Virus record (IMG/VR): IMGVR_UViG_2541047730_000004
Strand: one strand, 5' to 3'
Length of the DNA stretch: 42,322 nt
Source: a virus
Taxonomy: Duplodnaviria > Heunggongvirae > Uroviricota > Caudoviricetes
Shown one piece after another: positions 3,098-27,526 of the stretch. Position 1 is the stretch's first letter. The number at the start of each line of letters is the position of its first letter. The position numbers were made by a program, and so were the translations under genes. The notes beneath the pieces are model-generated. The model saw nothing but the letters and a program-made list of their open reading frames with translations, made no database searches and was not told the DNA's origin.

Positions 3098-3455
3098 CGT
3101 TTATATGCATAACTACCTCCTGAACAGTAAAGCATTACGCATGATAAACCATTTATGGTTTTTTGTTACCCAATATTACCAATCCAATTCGCGATGGTCA
3201 AAACATATCCACAGCGGTAAGTTTGAGTGTTTTCATTTCCAAAACTTTATACAATAATATATGCAGTCTGTTATTTTTACGCACAATAAAAACACGATAC
3301 CAGCTATTTCGCCATAAATACAATTTCCTTTAATGCTGCCAACAGTGCCTGCAAAACATATAACAGAACACATAAATAACAGGCATAATATAGATTTAAT
3401 AATCTAAGTGCATATAAATATCATTTAAGAAGTTAAGAGCATTATTATAATAACA

Positions 3456-3483
3456 ATAACCCCGCTGTTTTATTCGGGGTTAT
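3456..3483 (-). terminator. Rho-independent terminator just after the tailspike
   Basis: ATAACCCCG / CGGGGTTAT stem followed by T-rich sequence on the minus strand, 12 bp past the tailspike stop. Confidence 0.6.
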
Positions 3484-3494
3484 TGCATTTATTA

Positions 3495-6470
3495 TTACAT
3501 TGACATTAATATAAACATGGCTAATTCGTCATAACGAATTCCGTAGCGTCCTCCTGCTTTTTTTACAAGAATCATATCTCCTGTTTTATATTGAGAATAA
3601 ATTTTCTCACCTGTATCAGGATCTGTGCTCTCTTCAGTTATCACCTCTTCATCCCATACGTCAGGCCATTCATCGTAACACCAAAAAGCATATTGCTCAG
3701 GGTTTAAACCATGCTTTCTAAGAATATCCCCTACGGTTTGAGCGCCAACGCCAAAATGATACCTGGACGACTCAATTCCTTTGTGATTAATTGAGTCATT
3801 AAATTTAAATTTATAGATGACTGACTTTATTTCAATAGCGGCATTACGCTCTGCATTAAGAATATCATATCTTGTTTTAAGAGTTTCATCTGACGTATTG
3901 ATTGACCCGGTTCCTGCATAGATAACAGAGCATCTGTTTGATGGCTGTCCAATAGCTTTAACATTATCATCAACAGGAGCTATTTTATTAGCATCTGCCA
4001 ACCACCAGTCTGTTCCATCAGCGTGACCGATTCTTACTCTTATCCCACTTCTAATATTTAAACTTCCAGTATTACTCTGTAAATTACAATCTCCTGAAGT
4101 TGGTCCAAGCAGTACAGTTTTACCAACACCACATACTACTCTGGCATTTCCTTTTTGTGATACGAGTCTTGACTCACCTCCTGACTGCTCAGGAAGAGAT
4201 TTATGGTCTATAAATGCATCGCGGGGGTTAAATACACCGTCTCCAGAATTATATCTTCCTCCTGTATAGTTGTTAAATACAGGACCCCAGTCAACGCCAT
4301 TGCCTTCAGAGCACCCGACCATTCTAAGCACTCGAGTATTCCCTGCTGCATATGGTAATGAGCTTGTTGATTGCCGGGAAGCTATCATACGTGCTCCATA
4401 ACCAATAGCATTACCACCATTTATAGTTACATATGCTGGCTGGCTTTCGAAATATGTACTGTAAAAGTTCATATTTCCACAGTCATGTAGATGAATAAGA
4501 ACATCATCCCATCCCTGAATGGTTCCTGCATGTACCTGTACACCGCGAACTGGTTCCCCTGAAACCTCCATACACTCTGATGGTCGGCTGAATGGTTGAG
4601 ACAGGTATTGCGATGTGGCAAGCAGATGTGTGTGGTGATACAGGCTGGTAATGTAGCAATCGAAAAATTGCGTTCCCGCCATACCAAAGTTATCTATGTC
4701 ATTTCGCCGTATAGTAGAACCTACTGTTGCCTCAGAAGCGTTAGACACTCCAGTAAATACTAACTTATCACCGGATACGGATAATCCTGAATAAGTGAAA
4801 TTCCTGCCTCCAGATCTTAAAACCCCGGACGTTTCGAAGGTGTGGCTTGCTGACCATGGGATTTCGATAGTGCTGGACGTTACCGCTGTAATTCGGAATA
4901 CATCATGGGCGCGGATCGAAACACCCTTGAATCCCTGGAATCTACAGTGATAATAGTTTTCATCCTCGCCCTGAGCGGCCAGCGTGCCAGATACAGGAAT
5001 GTTCGTTTTTAAAAGTGCCGTCTTGCGCCAGTATCCAACCACCTGCAAATTGCGGTATTCATTGCCAAAAGACGCACGTGACCAAATACCTACATCCCAC
5101 TCATCGCCAAGACCGGTATTTGCAATGTCTTTATAACCATCCAGCCCATTGAAATATGGAACAATACGAAAGTTCTCAAGGCGAACACATCCTGTCTCTG
5201 GCATCAATATTGCGGCAGAGAATGGTTTAAGCGTGGCTCTTGTAGCCCCATTAGCATCACCGTTAGTAAAATCCAATAAATCATATGATGACGCAGGTGC
5301 CGTTGTTGTATACGGGTCTTCGGAAGATGGATTAGAAACCACACCACCACTAACATCCATATTAGAAACACAATCTACAGTATATTTTTTATTTCCTACA
5401 CCGTACATCAGGAATGTGGTCCCTGTGGTAATATCAGGAGCAAATGTTGCAGTATATCCAGAGACCCATTTGCCCACACCAAGACCAATTATCCCACCAC
5501 CAGAAACAGGTGTTAACGTATCCGTTATTACATACGCATTATCAGTACCATAAATAACCTTTCCTGTGTTAATGGCAGCTTGCCACGCGGCCCAGTCTAT
5601 TGACTGAGATAATGAGTCAACAAAAGGATATAAGGATTTTGCTTCAGAAATTGAAGAAAACCTCTCAGATAATGGATGATATTTCCCATCCCCAATTGCT
5701 CCGAATTGTTTTACATTTAAGAAAAGAGCATTGTTTTCATGCTGAGTTATAGTTACAGCCCCGGCAAATGGCTGCCTTACACCAATTAATGCATCACCTT
5801 TTCCTTCTCCTGCGCTAGATAATTGCAGAAGAACATCTGCGGCACTGCCAGAAGGCACAGGTACACCTATAGGTTTACCATTGACGATACCAATGACAGT
5901 TTCTTCCAGTAAATGAACTGGAGGAAGTGGTTCAATAAAATTATCTGGAACCCGTAATGTCCTGTTAATATTCACATTAACAATATTATCAACATAATTC
6001 TTTGTAGCTGCATCTTGAGGCTTGGAAGGATCGCGCAAATTGCGGATGTAATTATTCAAAGCATCGTAATAGTTTGCCACAAATGATGGTTTGCGCAGCG
6101 CCAGGCTAAACCAACTGCGGACTTGCTGTATCAGCATCGTCAGCTTATCTAACGCGTCTTCATGCACCTCAGCGAAAAACTTTCCCTGATTTCGCAGATC
6201 AGTTTCCTGCGTAACCGGTAGCTCTCGTGATATAGAAATCTGATAACCGTTAGCTAACGCCTTCGACAGAATTACATTACCGCCATTATATCCACCAGCC
6301 CCAGTGACAGTGTAATCAGTATCAAGAGCCAGCACAGCGATATTTTCGTCAAGGTCAACCACCTGTACTGCCAGATCAGATTCCTTGAAAACCCTAAAAG
6401 TATACGGAAATGATGTCGTAACGCCGTTACCTGTGTATTCGTTGTGGTCAACTTCGGTTGAGACCGTCAT
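3495..6470 (-). CDS. Tailspike / tail fibre with conserved N-terminal head-binding domain and C-terminal intramolecular chaperone (peptidase S74-type) domain
   Basis: N-terminus MTVSTEVDHNEYTGNGVTTSFPYTFRVF is the conserved tail-fibre anchor; the C-terminal ~150 aa (DILNAERNAAIEIKSV...) resembles the endosialidase-type auto-cleaving chaperone; 991 aa; visibly lower GC than the core virion genes. Confidence 0.8.
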   Translation of the reverse strand: MTVSTEVDHNEYTGNGVTTSFPYTFRVFKESDLAVQVVDLDENIAVLALDTDYTVTGAGGYNGGNVILSKALANGYQISISRELPVTQETDLRNQGKFFAEVHEDALDKLTMLIQQVRSWFSLALRKPSFVANYYDALNNYIRNLRDPSKPQDAATKNYVDNIVNVNINRTLRVPDNFIEPLPPVHLLEETVIGIVNGKPIGVPVPSGSAADVLLQLSSAGEGKGDALIGVRQPFAGAVTITQHENNALFLNVKQFGAIGDGKYHPLSERFSSISEAKSLYPFVDSLSQSIDWAAWQAAINTGKVIYGTDNAYVITDTLTPVSGGGIIGLGVGKWVSGYTATFAPDITTGTTFLMYGVGNKKYTVDCVSNMDVSGGVVSNPSSEDPYTTTAPASSYDLLDFTNGDANGATRATLKPFSAAILMPETGCVRLENFRIVPYFNGLDGYKDIANTGLGDEWDVGIWSRASFGNEYRNLQVVGYWRKTALLKTNIPVSGTLAAQGEDENYYHCRFQGFKGVSIRAHDVFRITAVTSSTIEIPWSASHTFETSGVLRSGGRNFTYSGLSVSGDKLVFTGVSNASEATVGSTIRRNDIDNFGMAGTQFFDCYITSLYHHTHLLATSQYLSQPFSRPSECMEVSGEPVRGVQVHAGTIQGWDDVLIHLHDCGNMNFYSTYFESQPAYVTINGGNAIGYGARMIASRQSTSSLPYAAGNTRVLRMVGCSEGNGVDWGPVFNNYTGGRYNSGDGVFNPRDAFIDHKSLPEQSGGESRLVSQKGNARVVCGVGKTVLLGPTSGDCNLQSNTGSLNIRSGIRVRIGHADGTDWWLADANKIAPVDDNVKAIGQPSNRCSVIYAGTGSINTSDETLKTRYDILNAERNAAIEIKSVIYKFKFNDSINHKGIESSRYHFGVGAQTVGDILRKHGLNPEQYAFWCYDEWPDVWDEEVITEESTDPDTGEKIYSQYKTGDMILVKKAGGRYGIRYDELAMFILMSM

Positions 6471-6573
6471 GTTAAATCTCCAGATAGTCGCAGCACCTGT
6501 TGCGCCGCATATCCGGTTATTCTATTACCTGAAAAACCACATATGGATAGATAACCCATAAATACGAACAGAT

Positions 6574-6590
6574 ATTACCTTTCAGGTGAT
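6574..6590. promoter_or_regulatory. Operator-like palindrome ATTACCTTTCAGGTGAT (TTACC-N5-GGTRA family)
   Basis: Matches the motif repeated at 12 or more intergenic sites; an additional half-site lies at 6525-6529. Confidence 0.45.
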
Positions 6591-6626
6591 TCGCAAAACG
6601 TGCTGGATAGCAAACAAATTATTTGA

Positions 6627-6646
6627 TACTGTATAAATATACAGTT
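6627..6646. promoter_or_regulatory. LexA box (SOS box)
   Basis: ATACTGTATAAATATACAGTTA: CTGT-N8-ACAG with an AT-only spacer and consensus-like flanks, ending 6 bp before the ATG at 6652. Confidence 0.75.
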
Positions 6647-6651
6647 ATTGC

Positions 6652-6924
6652 ATGGAGAAGATTAAGATGCAGCAGTATCACTATCCACTGGAAGACGGAT
6701 TTACCGAAAGGATTCACACGCCGGGAGGCGTCAGGTCACTGGTGGAGGGATCGCACTTGATGAAATTACTCCGGGATCTCGATAAGGATGGATTTAATGT
6801 CGATGGCCCACTTGCCGAACTGACTGCACTGATTAACTACGTCACCAGCTCACAGATGTCTATGCGGGATCTGCAAACACATCTCGACTATTGTGCCGAA
6901 CAATTACGAAAACAAACCACATAA
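6652..6924 (+). CDS. Small stand-alone antirepressor-C-terminal-domain protein, candidate SOS-inducible antirepressor
   Basis: Shares a diverged domain (RSLV..S.LM.LL..L..DG..V.G..AELT....YV......M.DLQTH..Y) with the C-termini of both Ant-like proteins at 8074..8730 and 9513..10451. LexA box immediately upstream. Alternative start at 6667 has a well-spaced GGAG RBS. Confidence 0.55.
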   Translation: MEKIKMQQYHYPLEDGFTERIHTPGGVRSLVEGSHLMKLLRDLDKDGFNVDGPLAELTALINYVTSSQMSMRDLQTHLDYCAEQLRKQTT

Positions 6925-6928
6925 AGAA

Positions 6929-6950
6929 AAGGCCGCAAGAGCGGCCTATC
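6929..6950. terminator. Bidirectional terminator between convergent genes
   Basis: GGCCGC-AAGA-GCGGCC hairpin flanked by an A-rich and a T-rich tract. Confidence 0.6.
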
Positions 6951-7674
6951 GTTTCGCTTTGTGCTCGTCCCAGCACGTTTTGCACCATGCCATTAAGCCA
7001 TCCGCATTTTGATTATTAGGGTAAAAACTGGTTCGTTTTCTGCGGACATTACAAATTGGGCACCACTTCATATGGCGTGTATTCTTTGGGCCATCGAGAC
7101 ACCTTGCACACCACTTAGTCAATCCATCTGGATTTTTTGACGATTTCCTGAATTTTCCATATGGAAGGGTTATTCTGCATCGCAAACACTGCTTGCGGGC
7201 ACTTGAAACTTCGTTAGCTGATTCTTCTTTTGACGGCGATACAGAAGGTATTCTTGCTGGCTCTGATACTGCCTGAGGTGCTTTTTTAGGTGACTGAGAC
7301 GATGTGTCATCACCAGGGAATCTTCCATGATATGCCGGACGCGTTGACACTCCAGGTGGAAGCTCTGCTGTAAATGGCTTTGGCTGAATCAGTTGCCTCT
7401 CTTTTGCTAACTCCTGCTGTTTATAATATGTCTGGATTACCGCACTATCATAAGCAGGAGGTGCGGAAATATTAGGCGCATTACCTCCAGTTTTTTGAAA
7501 CTGAGTAGAGGTGTGTTCTATCACCTGTGTACGATTAATCGTTATCTCCCCATCTTCGGTCTTTATCGTTTTGTTATGATTAACGACCGTACGATCAGAG
7601 ATCTTAGTCTTGTTCTGGTTGATAACGTAAATAATCACCGCAACCACACCAACAACTATCCAGAAAACTTCCAT
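6946..7674 (-). CDS. Membrane-anchored protein with tandem Cys-rich (zinc-ribbon-like) repeats; function unknown
   Basis: N-terminal transmembrane helix (VFWIVVGVVAVIIYVI), Pro/Ser-rich linker, then four CxxC pairs in two internal repeats (NPDGLTKWCARC / NADGLMAWCKTC). Confidence 0.55.
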   Translation of the reverse strand: MEVFWIVVGVVAVIIYVINQNKTKISDRTVVNHNKTIKTEDGEITINRTQVIEHTSTQFQKTGGNAPNISAPPAYDSAVIQTYYKQQELAKERQLIQPKPFTAELPPGVSTRPAYHGRFPGDDTSSQSPKKAPQAVSEPARIPSVSPSKEESANEVSSARKQCLRCRITLPYGKFRKSSKNPDGLTKWCARCLDGPKNTRHMKWCPICNVRRKRTSFYPNNQNADGLMAWCKTCWDEHKAKR

Positions 7675-7692
7675 TGCTTTTCCTCACAATAA

Positions 7693-7711
7693 TATTACCT
7701 TAAAGGTAATA
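7693..7711. promoter_or_regulatory. Operator palindrome TATTACC-TTAAA-GGTAATA (perfect 7-5-7)
   Basis: Perfect inverted repeat in the divergent intergenic region between 6946..7674 (-) and 8074..8730 (+). Confidence 0.6.
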
Positions 7712-7742
7712 TCTTGCTTTCAGGTGATCAAGCGTTAAACGC

Positions 7743-7764
7743 AATCAACCAAATACGGTTGATT
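7743..7764. promoter_or_regulatory. Second, different palindrome AATCAACC-AAATAC-GGTTGATT
   Basis: 8-bp perfect inverted arms; distinct from the TTACC/GGTAA motif; same regulatory region. Confidence 0.35.
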
Positions 7765-7786
7765 TTTATATTTATCAGCGTTTATC

Positions 7787-7804
7787 ATTACCTTTGCGGT
7801 AAAT
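7787..7804. promoter_or_regulatory. Operator palindrome ATTACC-TTTGC-GGTAAAT
   Basis: TTACC-N5-GGTAA family. Confidence 0.5.
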
Positions 7805-7894
7805 TTACATCGCACTCCTCTTGTGCCATAGTAATCGGGCACTGGCAAAATCCAGTGCCGGGATTGGTCTCCCGGATTACTAAGTGGCGCATAC

Positions 7895-7917
7895 CACGCC
7901 AGACGTGGTTTTTTTAT
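7895..7917 (+). terminator. Intrinsic terminator-like hairpin inside the 400-bp leader upstream of the AntA-like gene
   Basis: CCACG-CCAGA-CGTGG followed by TTTTTTT; a longer stem-loop (GCACTGG...CCAGTGC) lies at about 7838-7862. Confidence 0.4.
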
Positions 7918-8073
7918 GCGTATAGCACAGTCATGCCAGAATTATGGTGGGCTGAATGGGGGTCCGAAAGGACGCCGGTACCACTTAGGCCGGTAAGACC
8001 AACTCCGTTCAGTTCACCACCATCTGATTGGTCTCAGCGGTGGTGATGTAATTCGCTAAGTGGAGACGCCATC

Positions 8074-8730
8074 ATGAACGCTCAACTCATCCCCGTATTC
8101 AACGGCACTATATCTAACGAAACAGCCCTACTTTGTAATGCCCGCGATCTGCACGCTTTTTTAGGTGTTAAAAAGGTGTTTGCAGCATGGATTACAAATC
8201 GCATATCAGAATACGAATTCATTGAAAATCAAGACTATATTTTGCTTTCCAATTTGGGAAAGCAAACATCTGGTAGAGGCGGCCACAACCGCAAAGAGTA
8301 CCACCTCACCCTTGATACAGCCAAAGAGCTGGCGATGGTCGAGCGTAACGAAAAAGGTCGCCAGGTGCGACGCTACTTCATTGAATGCGAGAAACGTTTA
8401 AGACAACAAGAAACAAAAGTGGAGAAGGTCTTGTCAGGCTTCATGCCCGCCATTATGGAGGCGATCAAGCTGGAAGACAAAAAAGAATACAGCGCCCCAC
8501 TGAAGCCCGGCTACCGTAGCCTGATTCATTCGCCGTCTGGTGTTCTCGGCCTGACGGAGAACTCACTGCTGATGAATTTGCTGAACCAGTTACAGGAAGA
8601 CGGGCATGACGTATCGGGCGCGGCGGCGGAACTGACCACCATGTTCTGCTACATCGTTGGTGTGAGTAAATGCCTGCGTGATATCCAGACGCACGCGGAG
8701 TACATCAACGACAAGGCAGGGTTCTTCTGA
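8074..8730 (+). CDS. Antirepressor, AntA/Bro-N-like N-terminal domain plus shared Ant C-terminal domain
   Basis: N-terminal region (DLHAFLGV...W...[12 protein letters not shown]...[14 protein letters not shown]...RRYFIECEK) is typical of phage antirepressor N-domains; the C-terminal ~75 aa are near-identical to the C-terminus of 9513..10451; RBS GGAGA upstream. Confidence 0.65.
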
Positions 8731-8752
8731 CGGGCGGCGGCACAGGGATGTG
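8498..8752. repeat. Left arm of ~255-bp inverted repeat (about 95% identical to 9489..9746)
   Basis: Direct comparison of the reverse complement: e.g. ggtggtcagttccgccgccgcgcccgatacgtcatgcccgtcttcctgtaactggttcag versus ggttgtcagctccgccgccgcgcccgatacatcatgcccgtcttcctgtaactggttcag. Confidence 0.85.
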
Positions 8753-8795
8753 CTTCTGACATAATCATTTGCGGTGTGATGTAGATTCACGTAAG

Positions 8796-8812
8796 ATTAC
8801 CTTAAAGGTAAA
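8796..8812. promoter_or_regulatory. Operator palindrome ATTACC-TTAAA-GGTAAA overlapping the RBS/start of 8815
   Basis: TTACC-N5-GGTAA family; ends 3 bp before the ATG. Confidence 0.5.
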
Positions 8813-8814
8813 CC

Positions 8815-9039
8815 ATGAGTTTACATGAGGGGGGAAGCATGGAACTGAACATCATCACATTAATGAAAGCGCTTATTGGCGGTGCAGGAAGTGGCTTTGC
8901 TCTTTCTGGCGGGCTGTCTATGATCATACCTACTTTCACAGTGACGACTGGCGTTGCCTACCTTTTTGCCATTACTGGCGGTCTGGCTATGGCAGGTACT
9001 TACATTTTAAAAAAAATGAGTTCCGGTAGTGCAGACTGA
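8815..9039 (+). CDS. Small glycine-zipper membrane protein (cargo; toxin/holin-like or bacteriocin-like)
   Basis: 74 aa, Gly/Ala-rich transmembrane segments (GGAGSGFALSGG, ITGGLAMAG). Lies in the segment bracketed by the inverted repeats. Alternative start at 8839. Confidence 0.45.
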   Translation: MSLHEGGSMELNIITLMKALIGGAGSGFALSGGLSMIIPTFTVTTGVAYLFAITGGLAMAGTYILKKMSSGSAD

Positions 9040-9376
9040 GATCGTACAAGAATCACATTGGTACAATCCACAGACCGCTCAGGAGCTGGCGATCTTTTAT
9101 TGTATCCTTTGCATTGTGTATATAGTAATCCACCTGATATGGGATTTTCTCTCAAAAGAGACTGGTAGGTTTTCTGTTGTTAACCTTCAGTACAAACTGA
9201 ATGAGGTATATTCATCAACCACATTCGCAACGAGTGGTTTTTTCCTCGTTATGTTATGCGACATGAATAACCCTCTTAGAACATCAGATGCGTTTATCAT
9301 ACCGCTTATCTTGGCAATGCTTACTGGATTCATGATATCAATATCCGCAATAGCGCCAAAAAAAGTTAACATTTAA
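9029..9376 (+). CDS. Small polytopic membrane protein (cargo; possible immunity/partner protein)
   Basis: 115 aa with about three hydrophobic helices; start overlaps the previous gene; intrinsic terminator directly downstream. Confidence 0.45.
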   Translation: MQTEIVQESHWYNPQTAQELAIFYCILCIVYIVIHLIWDFLSKETGRFSVVNLQYKLNEVYSSTTFATSGFFLVMLCDMNNPLRTSDAFIIPLILAMLTGFMISISAIAPKKVNI

Positions 9377-9398
9377 GCCCGCACTGCGGGCTTTTTTG
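9376..9398 (+). terminator. Rho-independent terminator
   Basis: GCCCGC-ACT-GCGGGC followed by TTTTTTG. Confidence 0.65.
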
Positions 9399-9433
9399 TG
9401 TCTGCGGATTCCCGCCCTGGCGGCGGTGGCATT

Positions 9434-9462
9434 CGTTAAAAACAAGGCCGCGAAAGCGGCCT
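9434..9462 (-). terminator. Rho-independent terminator downstream of ant
   Basis: GGCCGC-GAAA-GCGGCC hairpin followed on the minus strand by TTGTTTTTAAC; a perfect 12-bp palindrome GTGACATGTCAC (9463-9474) abuts it. Confidence 0.55.
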
Positions 9463-9488
9463 GTGACATGTCACGATAGTTCAGTTTT

Positions 9489-9746
9489 GCACATCCCTGT
9501 GCCGCCGTTCTGTCAGAAGAACCCTGCCTTGTCGTTGATGTACTCCGCGTGCGTCTGGATATCACGCAGGCATTTGCTCACACCAACGATGTAGCAGAAC
9601 ATGGTTGTCAGCTCCGCCGCCGCGCCCGATACATCATGCCCGTCTTCCTGTAACTGGTTCAGCAGATTCATCAGCAGTGAGTGCTCCGTCAGGCCGAGAA
9701 CACCAGACGGAGAATGAATCAGGCTGCGGTAGCCGGGCTTCAGCGG
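9489..9746. repeat. Right arm of ~255-bp inverted repeat (pairs with 8498..8752)
   Basis: See left arm; covers the 3' end of ant on the minus strand plus about 25 bp past its stop codon. Confidence 0.85.
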
Positions 9747-10451
9747 ATAACCATAACATTTTGTCTGTGTTTTAATTGCCTCACGAAGCGCATCTAACAT
9801 CTTGACTGCCACTTCATCATTCTCTGATGCAGATCCAGCAGGGAGATACTCCCCTTCAAGCGGAACCCGAGCAACAAGAGACAACGCTTCGGCGAATTGA
9901 TCTTCATCAATTTCTTTGTACGAACAGCCAAAATGAGATTTCAGTGACGACCACATGGTGATCATCGCCTTAGCCTGTTTTTCTTTTGGCAGAGACTGAC
10001 CGCGACTCATGACGAGTTGTTTAATGGCTTCCTGCTGTTCAGTGGTGATTTTACCCGGCAACGCCTTTTTAGCTTTGCGTGGGTTAACTACATGGCCTTT
10101 AGTCCAGTAATCGTAGAGCACATCGTCACACTCTTCCTGATACTGGATTACCTTGTCGCGGATTTCAGGGCGTACTTTGTTTGGACTGATGCTGTTCAAC
10201 CAAGCTGCCAATTTTCGTAAAGCCATACAAATCATGGCTTGCACCCCACCGGCAGAAGGTATGGTGATTTCCACCATACCCTTCGAGAAGCGTTGAGAAA
10301 TCTTCTTATGTTGAGATTTCCAGTCTAGCCCCATTCCCTCAACGATAGGTTTCATTGGGGTATACGGTTCACCGTTGTGATTGACAACATAAAGCTCTGC
10401 GCCGTGGAATGGCACGTTGATAGTAGATACCGCTGTTGCTATACTCGTCAT
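9513..10451 (-). CDS. Antirepressor (P22 Ant-like position and architecture)
   Basis: 312 aa directly downstream of an Arc-like RHH gene and divergent from a Mnt-like RHH gene (P22 immI layout); N-terminal domain differs from 8074..8730 but the C-terminal ~75 aa are shared. Confidence 0.65.
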   Translation of the reverse strand: MTSIATAVSTINVPFHGAELYVVNHNGEPYTPMKPIVEGMGLDWKSQHKKISQRFSKGMVEITIPSAGGVQAMICMALRKLAAWLNSISPNKVRPEIRDKVIQYQEECDDVLYDYWTKGHVVNPRKAKKALPGKITTEQQEAIKQLVMSRGQSLPKEKQAKAMITMWSSLKSHFGCSYKEIDEDQFAEALSLVARVPLEGEYLPAGSASENDEVAVKMLDALREAIKTQTKCYGYPLKPGYRSLIHSPSGVLGLTEHSLLMNLLNQLQEDGHDVSGAAAELTTMFCYIVGVSKCLRDIQTHAEYINDKAGFF

Positions 10452-10523
10452 GTCGTTAATTCCTATACGTAGTTTTACGATACTGAAGCCCTGACGGTCT
10501 GGCCACCGTTGGGCTTCGCTGTT

Positions 10524-10691
10524 TTATGCCACGCTATTCTTCTCACCAGTGAGTCCATACACTTTCCTCAGCTGATAGATAATCTCTGTATTGAACTTTC
10601 GGCATTCTTTTTCGCCATTTCTTTCAATAGCTAACTTCACATCGTCCGGAAAACGAACTCGTCGTTGACACATCTCTTTTGCTTTTTGCAT
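10524..10691 (-). CDS. Arc-like ribbon-helix-helix repressor
   Basis: MQKAKEMCQRRVRFPDDVKLAIERNGEKECRKFNTEIIYQLRKVY: beta-strand RVRFP followed by two helices, ~56 aa; AGGAGA RBS 6 nt before this ATG. The longer ORF to 10727 would run through the operator palindrome. Confidence 0.65.
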   Translation of the reverse strand: MQKAKEMCQRRVRFPDDVKLAIERNGEKECRKFNTEIIYQLRKVYGLTGEKNSVA

Positions 10692-10705
10692 TTCATATCT
10701 CCTTA

Positions 10706-10720
10706 GCCCCACGGTGGGGC
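10706..10720. promoter_or_regulatory. Operator palindrome GCCCCAC-G-GTGGGGC; first of three CAC(C/G)GTG elements
   Basis: Perfect 7-1-7 inverted repeat between divergent arc-like and mnt-like genes; related elements CACCGTG (10734-10740) and CACGGTG (10759-10765). Confidence 0.55.
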
Positions 10721-10811
10721 AAAACAATTGTCACACCGTGCGTCATTGATGTCAAGCACACGGTGAGGCATACTTCAATCATTGCAAGTAACTCAATATT
10801 TGGTGAAGAAC

Positions 10812-11243
10812 ATGAGCAGAGAAGATCCACAACTAAGGATCAGACTTCCCGTTGAAGTAAAAGAAAAAATAGAAATTTCTGCAAAAGCCAATAAGCGATC
10901 AATGAACGCTGAAATAGTACAACGTCTTGACACCAGCTTTCTGAAAGATATTCATGAAGATGACGTAATTTCTGCTTATGAAGCAAAAATTATTGCAAAC
11001 AATGCACGGCATGAAATATCAAATATTATTTTCAAAAGAACCTTTAATGAAATTAATAAGAAAATAACACTTGGACATACAAGTTTTTATATAAACCTTA
11101 ATGACCTTGAACTGGAATCACTTGCAGATAATGATTACCAGATCATCTTTGAAAAAACATTTAATAAGCTCAATGAACTAGGTTACATCATCTGTGAAAA
11201 CTCATGGGATGCAGATGGTTTTGGAATTGAAATACCTGAATAG
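10812..11243 (+). CDS. Mnt-like ribbon-helix-helix repressor with a long C-terminal extension
   Basis: PQLRIRLPVEVKEKIEISAKANKRSMNAEIVQRL is an Arc/Mnt-type RHH; divergent from arc-ant; the AT-rich C-terminal ~80 aa have no recognisable motif. Confidence 0.6.
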   Translation: MSREDPQLRIRLPVEVKEKIEISAKANKRSMNAEIVQRLDTSFLKDIHEDDVISAYEAKIIANNARHEISNIIFKRTFNEINKKITLGHTSFYINLNDLELESLADNDYQIIFEKTFNKLNELGYIICENSWDADGFGIEIPE

Positions 11244-11285
11244 GAAGAACAAAAGGCGTGTACATATTACACGTCTTTAATACAA

Positions 11286-11897
11286 TTGAAAAACGCCACA
11301 TTACTGATGTATGTTACAACAAGGAGCGATATTTTGAAAACCATATCTATATTAAAGGTTGCATTAGGCGTCGCTATTATTTTGACTCTCTCAATATTGT
11401 TTTATTTTTACCACAAAAAAAATGCTATTGCTCTTGATGGTCACGCGGCAAACTCATTTTTCTCAGAGTACATAGTGCCGCTATCAGGAAGCGGTATAAC
11501 AAATAAATATACTGACTATGACATCAAATATGGAATTGATGATGGGGAGACTATTGTATTACATGTAATCATTAAAAACCTAATGACAGTAAATAAAAAT
11601 ACAGACTTCAACGATAAAAATACAATACATCACAACAACAGCAAAACATTAATTTCTTATAGTAGCAACATCTATACGGATAAATACCTAAAATACATCT
11701 CAGAAGATACAATAAAAGCAACCAGCGAAAAGTTAAAAAACATATATTGTGCATCCGGCAGTTTTCACAAATTATCGCCGCAGGAGCGTTTATTCTACGA
11801 AGCAAGAAAACAACGTAAGTCAATAATATTACATTATTATGCTGATTCAGGGGAGTCACTCATATTTAATATTGGGGTTTCCCCTGAATCATGCTAA
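11286..11897 (+). CDS. AT-rich membrane-anchored protein at the P22 sieA-equivalent position (candidate superinfection-exclusion/defence cargo)
   Basis: Single N-terminal transmembrane helix (ILKVALGVAIILTLSILFYFY) then an Asn/Lys/Tyr-rich domain; strongly AT-rich; sits between the last internal-core gene and mnt, co-oriented with mnt. Start uncertain. Confidence 0.45.
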   Translation: MKNATLLMYVTTRSDILKTISILKVALGVAIILTLSILFYFYHKKNAIALDGHAANSFFSEYIVPLSGSGITNKYTDYDIKYGIDDGETIVLHVIIKNLMTVNKNTDFNDKNTIHHNNSKTLISYSSNIYTDKYLKYISEDTIKATSEKLKNIYCASGSFHKLSPQERLFYEARKQRKSIILHYYADSGESLIFNIGVSPESC

Positions 11898-11908
11898 AGG
11901 CGTTTAAC

Positions 11909-27449: not shown

Positions 27450-27526
27450 CAGCAGGACGCCATTGCGATGACTTCATGCTGTAAACCAGTACAGCCACGG
27501 AAGGCATAACTCATTGCTTCCAGTTC

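Follow-up and report, generated by a model that had tools for sequence, protein, structure and literature searches.

Epsilon15 and phiV10 are the Uetakevirus phages whose tailspikes come closest to the one described here. Their spike genes lie after the ejection (core) genes and a divergent gp19 homologue and before the holins, and exchanges of receptor-binding modules between podophage genera are well documented (PMC10408124). A tailspike gene occupies the same slot, at positions 3495-6470, in the 42,322-nucleotide Caudoviricetes sequence of IMG/VR record IMGVR_UViG_2541047730_000004 (hereafter the window, meaning the whole stretch of DNA that was analysed). We argue that an epsilon15-like (Uetakevirus-type) temperate podophage, integrated beside yfgI, has its only tailspike encoded by this gene, that the protein is made of an anchor, a beta-helix and an S74 chaperone, and that its most likely substrate is a capsule of the KrkA type; we give this whole explanation a probability of about 0.6. 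The architecture is already known, being that of an ordinary modular phage tailspike, and what is new is the receptor prediction. The initial annotation of the stretch had read the gene as a tailspike with a conserved anchor, a variable beta-helix body and an auto-cleaving chaperone, a core reading that holds with refinements on the limits of the modules, the GC content and the glycan.

The gene is a single uninterrupted open reading frame (ORF) of 991 codons on the minus strand that begins with ATG and ends in a TAA codon at 3495-3497. Its DNA is 100% identical to that of RefSeq WP_021524913.1 ('tail fiber domain-containing protein'), from a prophage of Escherichia coli AHB29 that adjoins yfgH-yfgI, and its product matches PHROG 1171, 'tail spike protein', across its full length. 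The computed masses of the predicted cleavage products are 92.7 kDa for the mature spike and 15.3 kDa for the chaperone. The gene and its parts are given below, with model confidence as the predicted local distance difference test (pLDDT).

3495..6470, minus strand: tailspike gene, 991 residues, 108-kDa precursor (ORF and translation, PHROG 1171, WP_021524913.1)
6081..6470, minus strand: tail-anchor domain of the epsilon15 gp20 / T7 gp17 N-terminal type, residues 1-130 (phmmer, Foldseek, pLDDT 75-88 at residues 10-90)
5811..6080, minus strand: epsilon15-type neck or linker, residues 131-220 (common to Uetakevirus spikes; pLDDT <50 in the first model)
5802..5855, minus strand: module junction, residues ~206-223, the point at which different anchors are attached to the receptor-binding unit
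4191..5720, minus strand: predicted right-handed parallel beta-helix, putative depolymerase body, residues 251-760 (with seven conserved residues, named below)
3894..4190, minus strand: C-terminal stalk before the predicted cleavage site, residues 761-859 (pLDDT 45-75; end of Pfam End_tail_spike; alignment to the pre-cleavage segments of 7y5s, 3gw6 and 4uw8)
3498..3893, minus strand: S74-type intramolecular chaperone domain, residues 860-991 (Pfam PF13884, phmmer, Foldseek)
3891-3893 and 3876-3878, minus strand: predicted cleavage dyad S860 and K865, with the predicted cut at T859/S860 (alignment to solved chaperones)

The anchor and the exchangeable unit

The phage can be classed as epsilon15-like because of the genes around the spike: two holins, a GH19 endolysin and an Rz-like gene downstream and, upstream past an accessory tract, a T7-gp14-family core protein, an SLT-domain protein and other virion genes, in an order that is that of the annotated epsilon15 genome. 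Both traits of a Uetakevirus tailspike are present, the gp20-type anchor (70% identity to gp20) and the epsilon15-like synteny, with a gp19 homologue at 83% and core, SLT, holin and GH19 neighbours. Two differences set the loci apart. In epsilon15 nothing but gp18, a terminator and gp19 separates the spike from the core genes, whereas antirepressor modules take up 5.4 kb of this interval in the window prophage; after the spike lie the O-antigen conversion genes in epsilon15, but an empty AT-rich gap of 397 bp in the window prophage.

The N-terminus of the spike is of the epsilon15 type. Residues 1-129 match chains of Klebsiella Dpo31/Dpo36 (E 2.7e-25 in a phmmer search of solved structures), and the anchor in the first model superposes on the Carin-1 fibre (8ck1_B) and on the N-terminus of T7 gp17 (7boz/7ey9; Foldseek). 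The spikes of epsilon15, phiV10 and SPN1S are 70-76% identical to it in this part, and the similarity stops abruptly at residues ~220-230, i.e., at residue 230 against epsilon15 gp20 (70% over residues 1-230) and at residue 219 against phiV10; from residue ~230 on, the receptor-binding parts of epsilon15 gp20 and of the phiV10 spike are unrelated to that of the window spike. The conserved N-terminal module of the initial annotation is thus confirmed, but not its extent of ~120 residues, as the epsilon15-type conserved part spans ~220-230 residues, of which only the first ~130 are the structural anchor. By homology to the anchors of epsilon15 gp20 and T7 gp17, these ~130 residues would dock the trimer onto the tail, and residues ~131-220 would be the neck common to the genus.

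Likeness to spikes of other phages begins around the place where that to epsilon15 ends: at residue 206 for the P22-type P0110 (97%), 217 for YZ1, 191 for the PF18668-type and 225 for KMB14, while DNA identity with P22-type prophages ends at window position 5802. The stretch from residue ~206 to 991 is found 97-99% identical on the P22 head-binding anchor (PF09008; e.g., WP_110221334.1) in argW prophages of four complete genomes. It also occurs, at 72% identity over residues 217-991 (helix, stalk and chaperone), on the different, T7-like anchor of the receptor-binding protein (RBP) of the lytic Kayfunavirus YZ1 (AUX83623.1), at ~70% on the PF18668-type anchor and at 41% on that of the Vectrevirus KMB14. 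Helix, stalk and chaperone (residues ~206-991) are therefore one mobile unit, present on at least four other anchor types. The earlier picture of two conserved ends around a variable middle stands for the anchor but not for the other end, since body and chaperone travel together as an exchangeable unit. In the mechanism that we propose, everything from residues ~206-223 onward would be a horizontally exchanged receptor-binding unit, made of the helix (~251-760), the stalk (~761-859) and the chaperone (860-991).

The GC profile agrees with this picture of an anchor carrying a mobile unit. The GC content is 46.4% at residues 1-130 (0.45 at third codon positions), ~43% at residues 131-859 (~0.31) and 36.1% at residues 860-991 (0.27); the virion genes lie at 45-55%. 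The middle of the gene had been described as lower in GC, and it is indeed below the N-terminus (~43 vs 46.4%), but the lowest value of all is that of the chaperone.

The beta-helix body and the C-terminal chaperone

The body of the protein starts in familiar territory: residues 221-270 resemble the linker of the Sf6/P22 spikes, and residues 251-336 resemble the start of the beta-helices of phi297 gp27 (E 1e-16) and LKA1 gp49 (E 1e-13). A first AlphaFold2 run on the full length with 25 sequences gave a mean pLDDT of 51, and Foldseek on that model returned low template modelling (TM) scores only. Near-identical prophage copies (>100) saturated the homologue searches made with the spike itself (P0001 alone is on 142 contigs, and host contigs number ~300 in all), and distant relatives (KMB14; P0135 and P0136) were used as queries instead, which recovered ~30 homologues at 30-48% identity. 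A second run on residues 221-870 with a more diverse alignment reached a mean pLDDT of 83 and a predicted TM score (pTM) of 0.80; it is confident to residue ~760 and weak at residues 761-870. Structurally, the central domain comes closest to phage depolymerases of capsule and O-antigen and to pectin/alginate lyases, and in BFVD it matches phage proteins of the 'pectate lyase superfamily'. The beta-helix depolymerase that had been expected in the middle of the protein is in line with this structure prediction, which gives a right-handed parallel beta-helix rather than a non-glycan fold; as modelled, the fold of the central domain is a glycan-active one.

The solved depolymerases offer little guidance on the active site, as helix-body identity to phi297 gp27 (4RU5), LKA1 gp49 (4RU4) and Kp7 gp51 is <20% and their catalytic residues are not transferable; their substrates are Pseudomonas O-antigen for phi297 and LKA1 and Klebsiella capsule for Kp7 gp51. 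The family to which the body belongs is large. An exhaustive search found 153 clusters at E <= 1e-30 and 1,183 at E <= 1e-3, and across 145 representatives <60% identical seven residues (D459, R520, D523, H612, E635, R642 and E675) are conserved at 90-99%. One might suppose that the beta-helix is a non-catalytic adhesin and that the spike binds its receptor only, given that no catalytic residues can be assigned by homology, but such conservation of these same residues, in a family whose members fall to ~30% identity, is what an active site typically shows and makes a mere adhesin highly improbable. At the level of sequence, the conservation of charged residues argues for a catalytic site rather than mere binding and fits an action on an acidic glycan. 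The beta-helix would thus bind and cleave a polysaccharide of the host surface, as a hydrolase or a lyase, and let the virion tunnel to the outer membrane.

Between the helix and the chaperone, the C-terminal end of Pfam End_tail_spike matches residues 825-859 within a few bits of the threshold. This stalk is probably interlocked in the trimer, which would explain the low confidence of the monomer model. The conserved module that had been noted at the C-terminus is borne out by matches to solved intramolecular chaperone domains (E 1e-14 to 5e-23). The phmmer E-values are 5e-23 for 7y5s, the fibre gp51 of Klebsiella phage Kp7, which has this chaperone in common with the window spike, 9.3e-14 for endoNF (3gw6), 1.1e-11 for T5 pb1 (4uw8) and 3.5e-9 for GA-1 (3gud); Foldseek matched the last three. 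In the motif INT-S860-DETL-K865 (S-x4-K), S860 aligns with Ser in 7y5s and with Ala in 3gw6 and 4uw8, and K865 with their Lys. The 3gw6 and 4uw8 constructs are Ser-to-Ala mutants, and in endoNF and T5 pb1 the cut falls N-terminal to the Ser. The claim of auto-cleavage finds support in this alignment of Ser860 and Lys865 with the cleavage dyad of endoNF and T5 pb1, from which cleavage itself is predicted. The chaperone would drive the folding of the trimer and then release itself: Ser860 would attack the T859-S860 bond, aided by Lys865, and leave a spike of ~93 kDa.

The logic is that of K1F endoNF (3GW6) and of the endosialidase spike of strain E18055, which likewise combine an anchor, a capsule-degrading body, a stalk and an S74 chaperone with a Ser-Lys dyad. 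The E18055 spike occupies this slot in a prophage of the same lineage. The bodies differ: endosialidase spikes use a sialidase beta-propeller on polysialic acid, whereas the window spike has a predicted beta-helix for a presumed polymer of ribofuranose (Ribf) and 3-deoxy-D-manno-oct-2-ulosonic acid (Kdo). For the window spike, enzymatic activity, trimerisation, autoproteolysis and capsule specificity are all properties that we infer.

The receptor: O-antigen and capsule in the hosts

Eleven complete genomes of E. coli carry the epsilon15-type spike at >= 99% identity, and four more carry the P22-type version. O-antigen is the default receptor of Uetakevirus and Lederbergvirus spikes (PMC10408124), and the spike could be expected to be O-antigen-specific and to cut the O polysaccharide of its lysogen like those of epsilon15 (gp20), phiV10, P22, Sf6 and HK620. 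The start of its beta-helix does resemble the O-antigen-specific LKA1 gp49 and phi297 gp27 spikes, and five hosts (702/18, XH992, HS4, E22 and SBF22) have in common an O153-like cluster found in only 77 of 5,426 genomes. Yet spikes at least 99% identical occur in hosts with three unrelated O clusters, as AHB29 has one of the 'O120 family' and YDC107 one of the 'O102 family', and the five hosts with the O153-like cluster seem to be a single clone. Moreover, O-antigen conversion genes are absent after the spike, unlike in epsilon15, and the YZ1 RBP subtype, listed in O102, O6, O1 and O153 strains, has been flagged as multi-serogroup, with a K antigen suggested as receptor (PMC10408124). Specificity for the O-antigen is thus improbable, and we rejected it once the galF-gnd clusters located in three hosts had revealed three different O clusters under one spike.

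The O153-like cluster has peculiarities of its own (702/18, locus L009, 39145-41533): its flippase gene is short (927 bp) and is followed by IS1, and a gne pseudogene lies upstream. Lysogens with this cluster may make little or no O-antigen, exposing the capsule as the main receptor.

The capsule locus gives a different picture. In YDC107, region 2 of the group 2 capsule locus encodes a 1114-residue 'HAD hydrolase' and an acetyltransferase, and megablast finds this kps region 2 in 65 of 5,426 complete genomes. Eleven genomes, two spike hosts among them, carry a region 2 variant identical to that of NCTC9022, whose copy of the large protein is WP_001336789, matched by accession to KrkA. KrkA alone synthesises the ->3)-beta-D-Ribf-(1->7)-beta-D-Kdop-(2-> backbone of K13, K20 and K23, as shown biochemically in 2026 (PMC12887879). 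Of the 1114 residues of the YDC107-type KrkA, 48 differ from those of the NCTC9022 protein, most of them in the C-terminal membrane-association tail, and the acetyltransferase alongside is a different one. A KrkA-type region 2 is present in 11 of the 15 spike-carrying genomes, namely eight of the 11 with the epsilon15-type spike and three of the four with the P22-type. Since the hosts have at least three O clusters and so rare a region 2 is found in 11 of 15, the receptor is likely the KrkA-type capsule. The likely substrate is thus a group 2 capsule, of the K13/K20/K23 family and close variants, rather than the O-antigen, by an association with four exceptions. It had been proposed that the body defines specificity for a host surface glycan, to be compared with the host antigens; once made, the comparison did not bear this out for the O-antigen, which differs among hosts, and for the KrkA capsule locus it gave an association, in 11 of 15.

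A number of results weigh against the explanation proposed here for the gene. First, the hypergeometric P of 4e-19 for the overlap between spike and KrkA locus is uncorrected for shared ancestry, and several hosts are one clone; the clonal hosts agree in their O cluster and in the distance from prophage to locus, so that P overstates the number of independent events. Second, the KrkA locus was not found at megablast sensitivity in four of the 15 spike genomes (AHB29, LS45, XH992 and 23CRST013). Third, AHB29, the closest match to the window, clearly carries another region 2, in which wecC, a large glycosyltransferase and DUF6270 are found. Fourth, a family-profile search of Protein Data Bank (PDB) sequences found no solved relative for residues ~340-820, and because it matched the N-terminal cap only, no catalytic residues can be transferred by homology. 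Fifth, the Peptidase_S74 family (PF13884) matches residues 860-922 with 21.9 bits, 0.1 below its gathering cutoff of 22. The exceptions among the hosts possibly arose from capsule switching after lysogeny, from spike exchange by recombination or from a broader receptor range. The kps locus of XH992 was looked for and not located, and the negatives for LS45 and 23CRST013 come from the megablast lists; divergent KrkA clusters, of 46-48% identity (PMC12887879), would escape megablast.

It could also be that the spike acts on another glycan or on a broader set of capsules (with another acidic polymer, colanic acid and enterobacterial common antigen among the candidates) and that its association with KrkA is mainly clonal co-inheritance. 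The four exceptions, including AHB29 with its different K locus, would fit, as would an association statistic that ignores phylogeny, and recombination can swap prophage spikes after lysogeny. The association nevertheless holds on two phage chassis (epsilon15- and P22-type) and extends over two variants of the K locus, one identical to that of K13 and one of the YDC107 type, as well as over at least two O types, and the loci for colanic acid and enterobacterial common antigen are near-universal and could not explain a restriction to 1.2% of genomes. We regard another glycan as unlikely, and retain the KrkA-type capsule as the likely substrate.

In closely related prophages at yfgI the slot of the window spike is occupied by other spikes, among them an endosialidase, SGNH/GDSL hydrolases and a GH28-related protein, which together form a natural set of spike exchanges within one phage chassis. 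The endosialidase spike is found in the prophage of the avian pathogenic E. coli (APEC) strain E18055, of type O2:K1:H7 (locus L021, 4112-7231). An endosialidase spike in a K1 strain, in this same slot, implies that capsule-matched spikes are normal for this phage group.

One chromosomal layout for all hosts was also considered, and did not hold for 702/18, YDC107 and AHB29. In AHB29 (NZ_OZ547246.1) a large inversion with respect to K-12 follows from the order of the genes, with the 4.3-Mb region of K-12 beside the 2.6-Mb region; kps was found where an rrnG-rrnH inversion would place it, and the pap/pathogenicity island (PAI) segment is present in two copies.

The spike and its YZ1, P22-type and PF18668-type relatives may even be the gene family, unassigned until now, of a phage glycanase that depolymerises the Kdo-ribofuranose capsules K13, K20 and K23 of invasive E. 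coli. It would then be a beta-helix enzyme cutting the beta-Kdo or the beta-ribofuranosyl linkage, and a glycoside hydrolase or lyase family new among solved or sequence-defined enzymes. We put this forward tentatively, as something possible that falls short of even odds. The literature searched held no published phage enzyme gene for K13/K20/K23 or for Kdo cleavage, and no experimentally assigned receptor for the YZ1 RBP or the P22-type relatives. A phage glycanase that cleaves beta-Kdo linkages in these capsules was reportedly described in the 1980s, which serves as a lead only.

The K type K13_K23 is among those most strongly associated with invasive disease (PMC13171606). If the prediction is true, there is a widely distributed, ready-made enzyme for typing or stripping capsules of the K13/K20/K23 type; temperate epsilon15-like and P22-like phages of E. 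coli read K antigens besides O antigens; and the 'multi-serogroup' RBP subtype of earlier work is explained. What this adds is a specific prediction of the receptor, a capsule of the K13/K20/K23 family, of an RBP subtype left unplaced by earlier work.

Terminators and the accessory tract

The spike is separated from the virion genes by a tract of 5.4 kb (6471-11908). The initial annotation had described this separation as an immI region, a fair description in view of the antirepressor and RNA elements found there. These elements, and the terminators on either side of the spike gene, are as follows.

3447..3495, minus strand: terminator-like hairpin overlapping the spike stop codon (12-bp core stem AAUAACCCCGCU.../...CGGGGUUAUU, 10-nt loop, A/U-rich tail)
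6930..6947, minus strand: canonical intrinsic terminator of the upstream gene at 6946-7674 (7-bp stem with 6 GC pairs, plus UUUUCUUU)
7839-7915, plus strand: isrK RNA (Rfam, 67.7 bits, above the gathering score)
7940-8024, plus strand: C4 antisense RNA (Rfam, 61.2 bits, above the gathering score)
8074-8730, plus strand: AntA antirepressor (domain match)
9513-10451, minus strand: P22_AR_N antirepressor (153.8 bits)
10453-10520: sar RNA, adjoining the 5' end of the P22_AR_N gene (Rfam, 45.2 bits, gathering threshold 43)
10782-11243, plus strand: Arc-family protein (54.3 bits)

That the spike gene has its own terminator is plausible. A strong hairpin directly follows the stop codon, with an RNA folding energy of -20.4 kcal/mol and a z score of -4.59 (none of 200 shuffles was as good), but it is non-canonical. 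A consensus terminator scan found no terminator after the spike stop, and missed the hairpin because its loop has 10 nt and its U-tract is interrupted (UUAUUAUAAUAAU). On the other side, a promoter scan gave no convincing sigma-70 promoter upstream of the spike, and the terminator at 6930..6947, judged by its sequence, would insulate the gene against read-through.

The tract seems to be composed of two immunity-like modules. The isrK and C4 RNAs and a sub-threshold c4 a1b1 target (7826-8024, plus strand) lie directly upstream of the AntA gene, an arrangement like that of the antisense control module of P1/P7 immI. The sar RNA, P22_AR_N and the Arc-family protein (9513-11243) form a second module, like P22 immI, which brings the antirepressor systems of the prophage to as many as three. 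At 6627-6646 lies a near-consensus LexA box (TACTGTATAAATATACAGTT), ~20 nt upstream of an 85-residue ORF (6667-6924, plus strand) that is divergent from the spike, 83% identical to epsilon15 gp19 and weakly matched by an anti-repressor PHROG. Box and ORF look like the SOS-controlled small antirepressor switch of the epsilon15-like phage SPC32H, and the box predicts that the prophage is under SOS control. The motif CTGT-N8-ACAG also occurs at 27479-27494 inside the virion gene block, probably by chance. The 242-residue protein encoded at 6946-7674 (minus strand) is of unknown function (PHROG 6762), and its C-terminal ~45 residues resemble zinc-ribbon, endonuclease VII or Lar-like modules.

Downstream of the spike, the gap before the holins (3098-3494, 397 bp) is free of ORFs, has 31% GC and corresponds in position to the O-antigen conversion genes of epsilon15. 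YDC107_2 is the only phage record that contains the full stretch.

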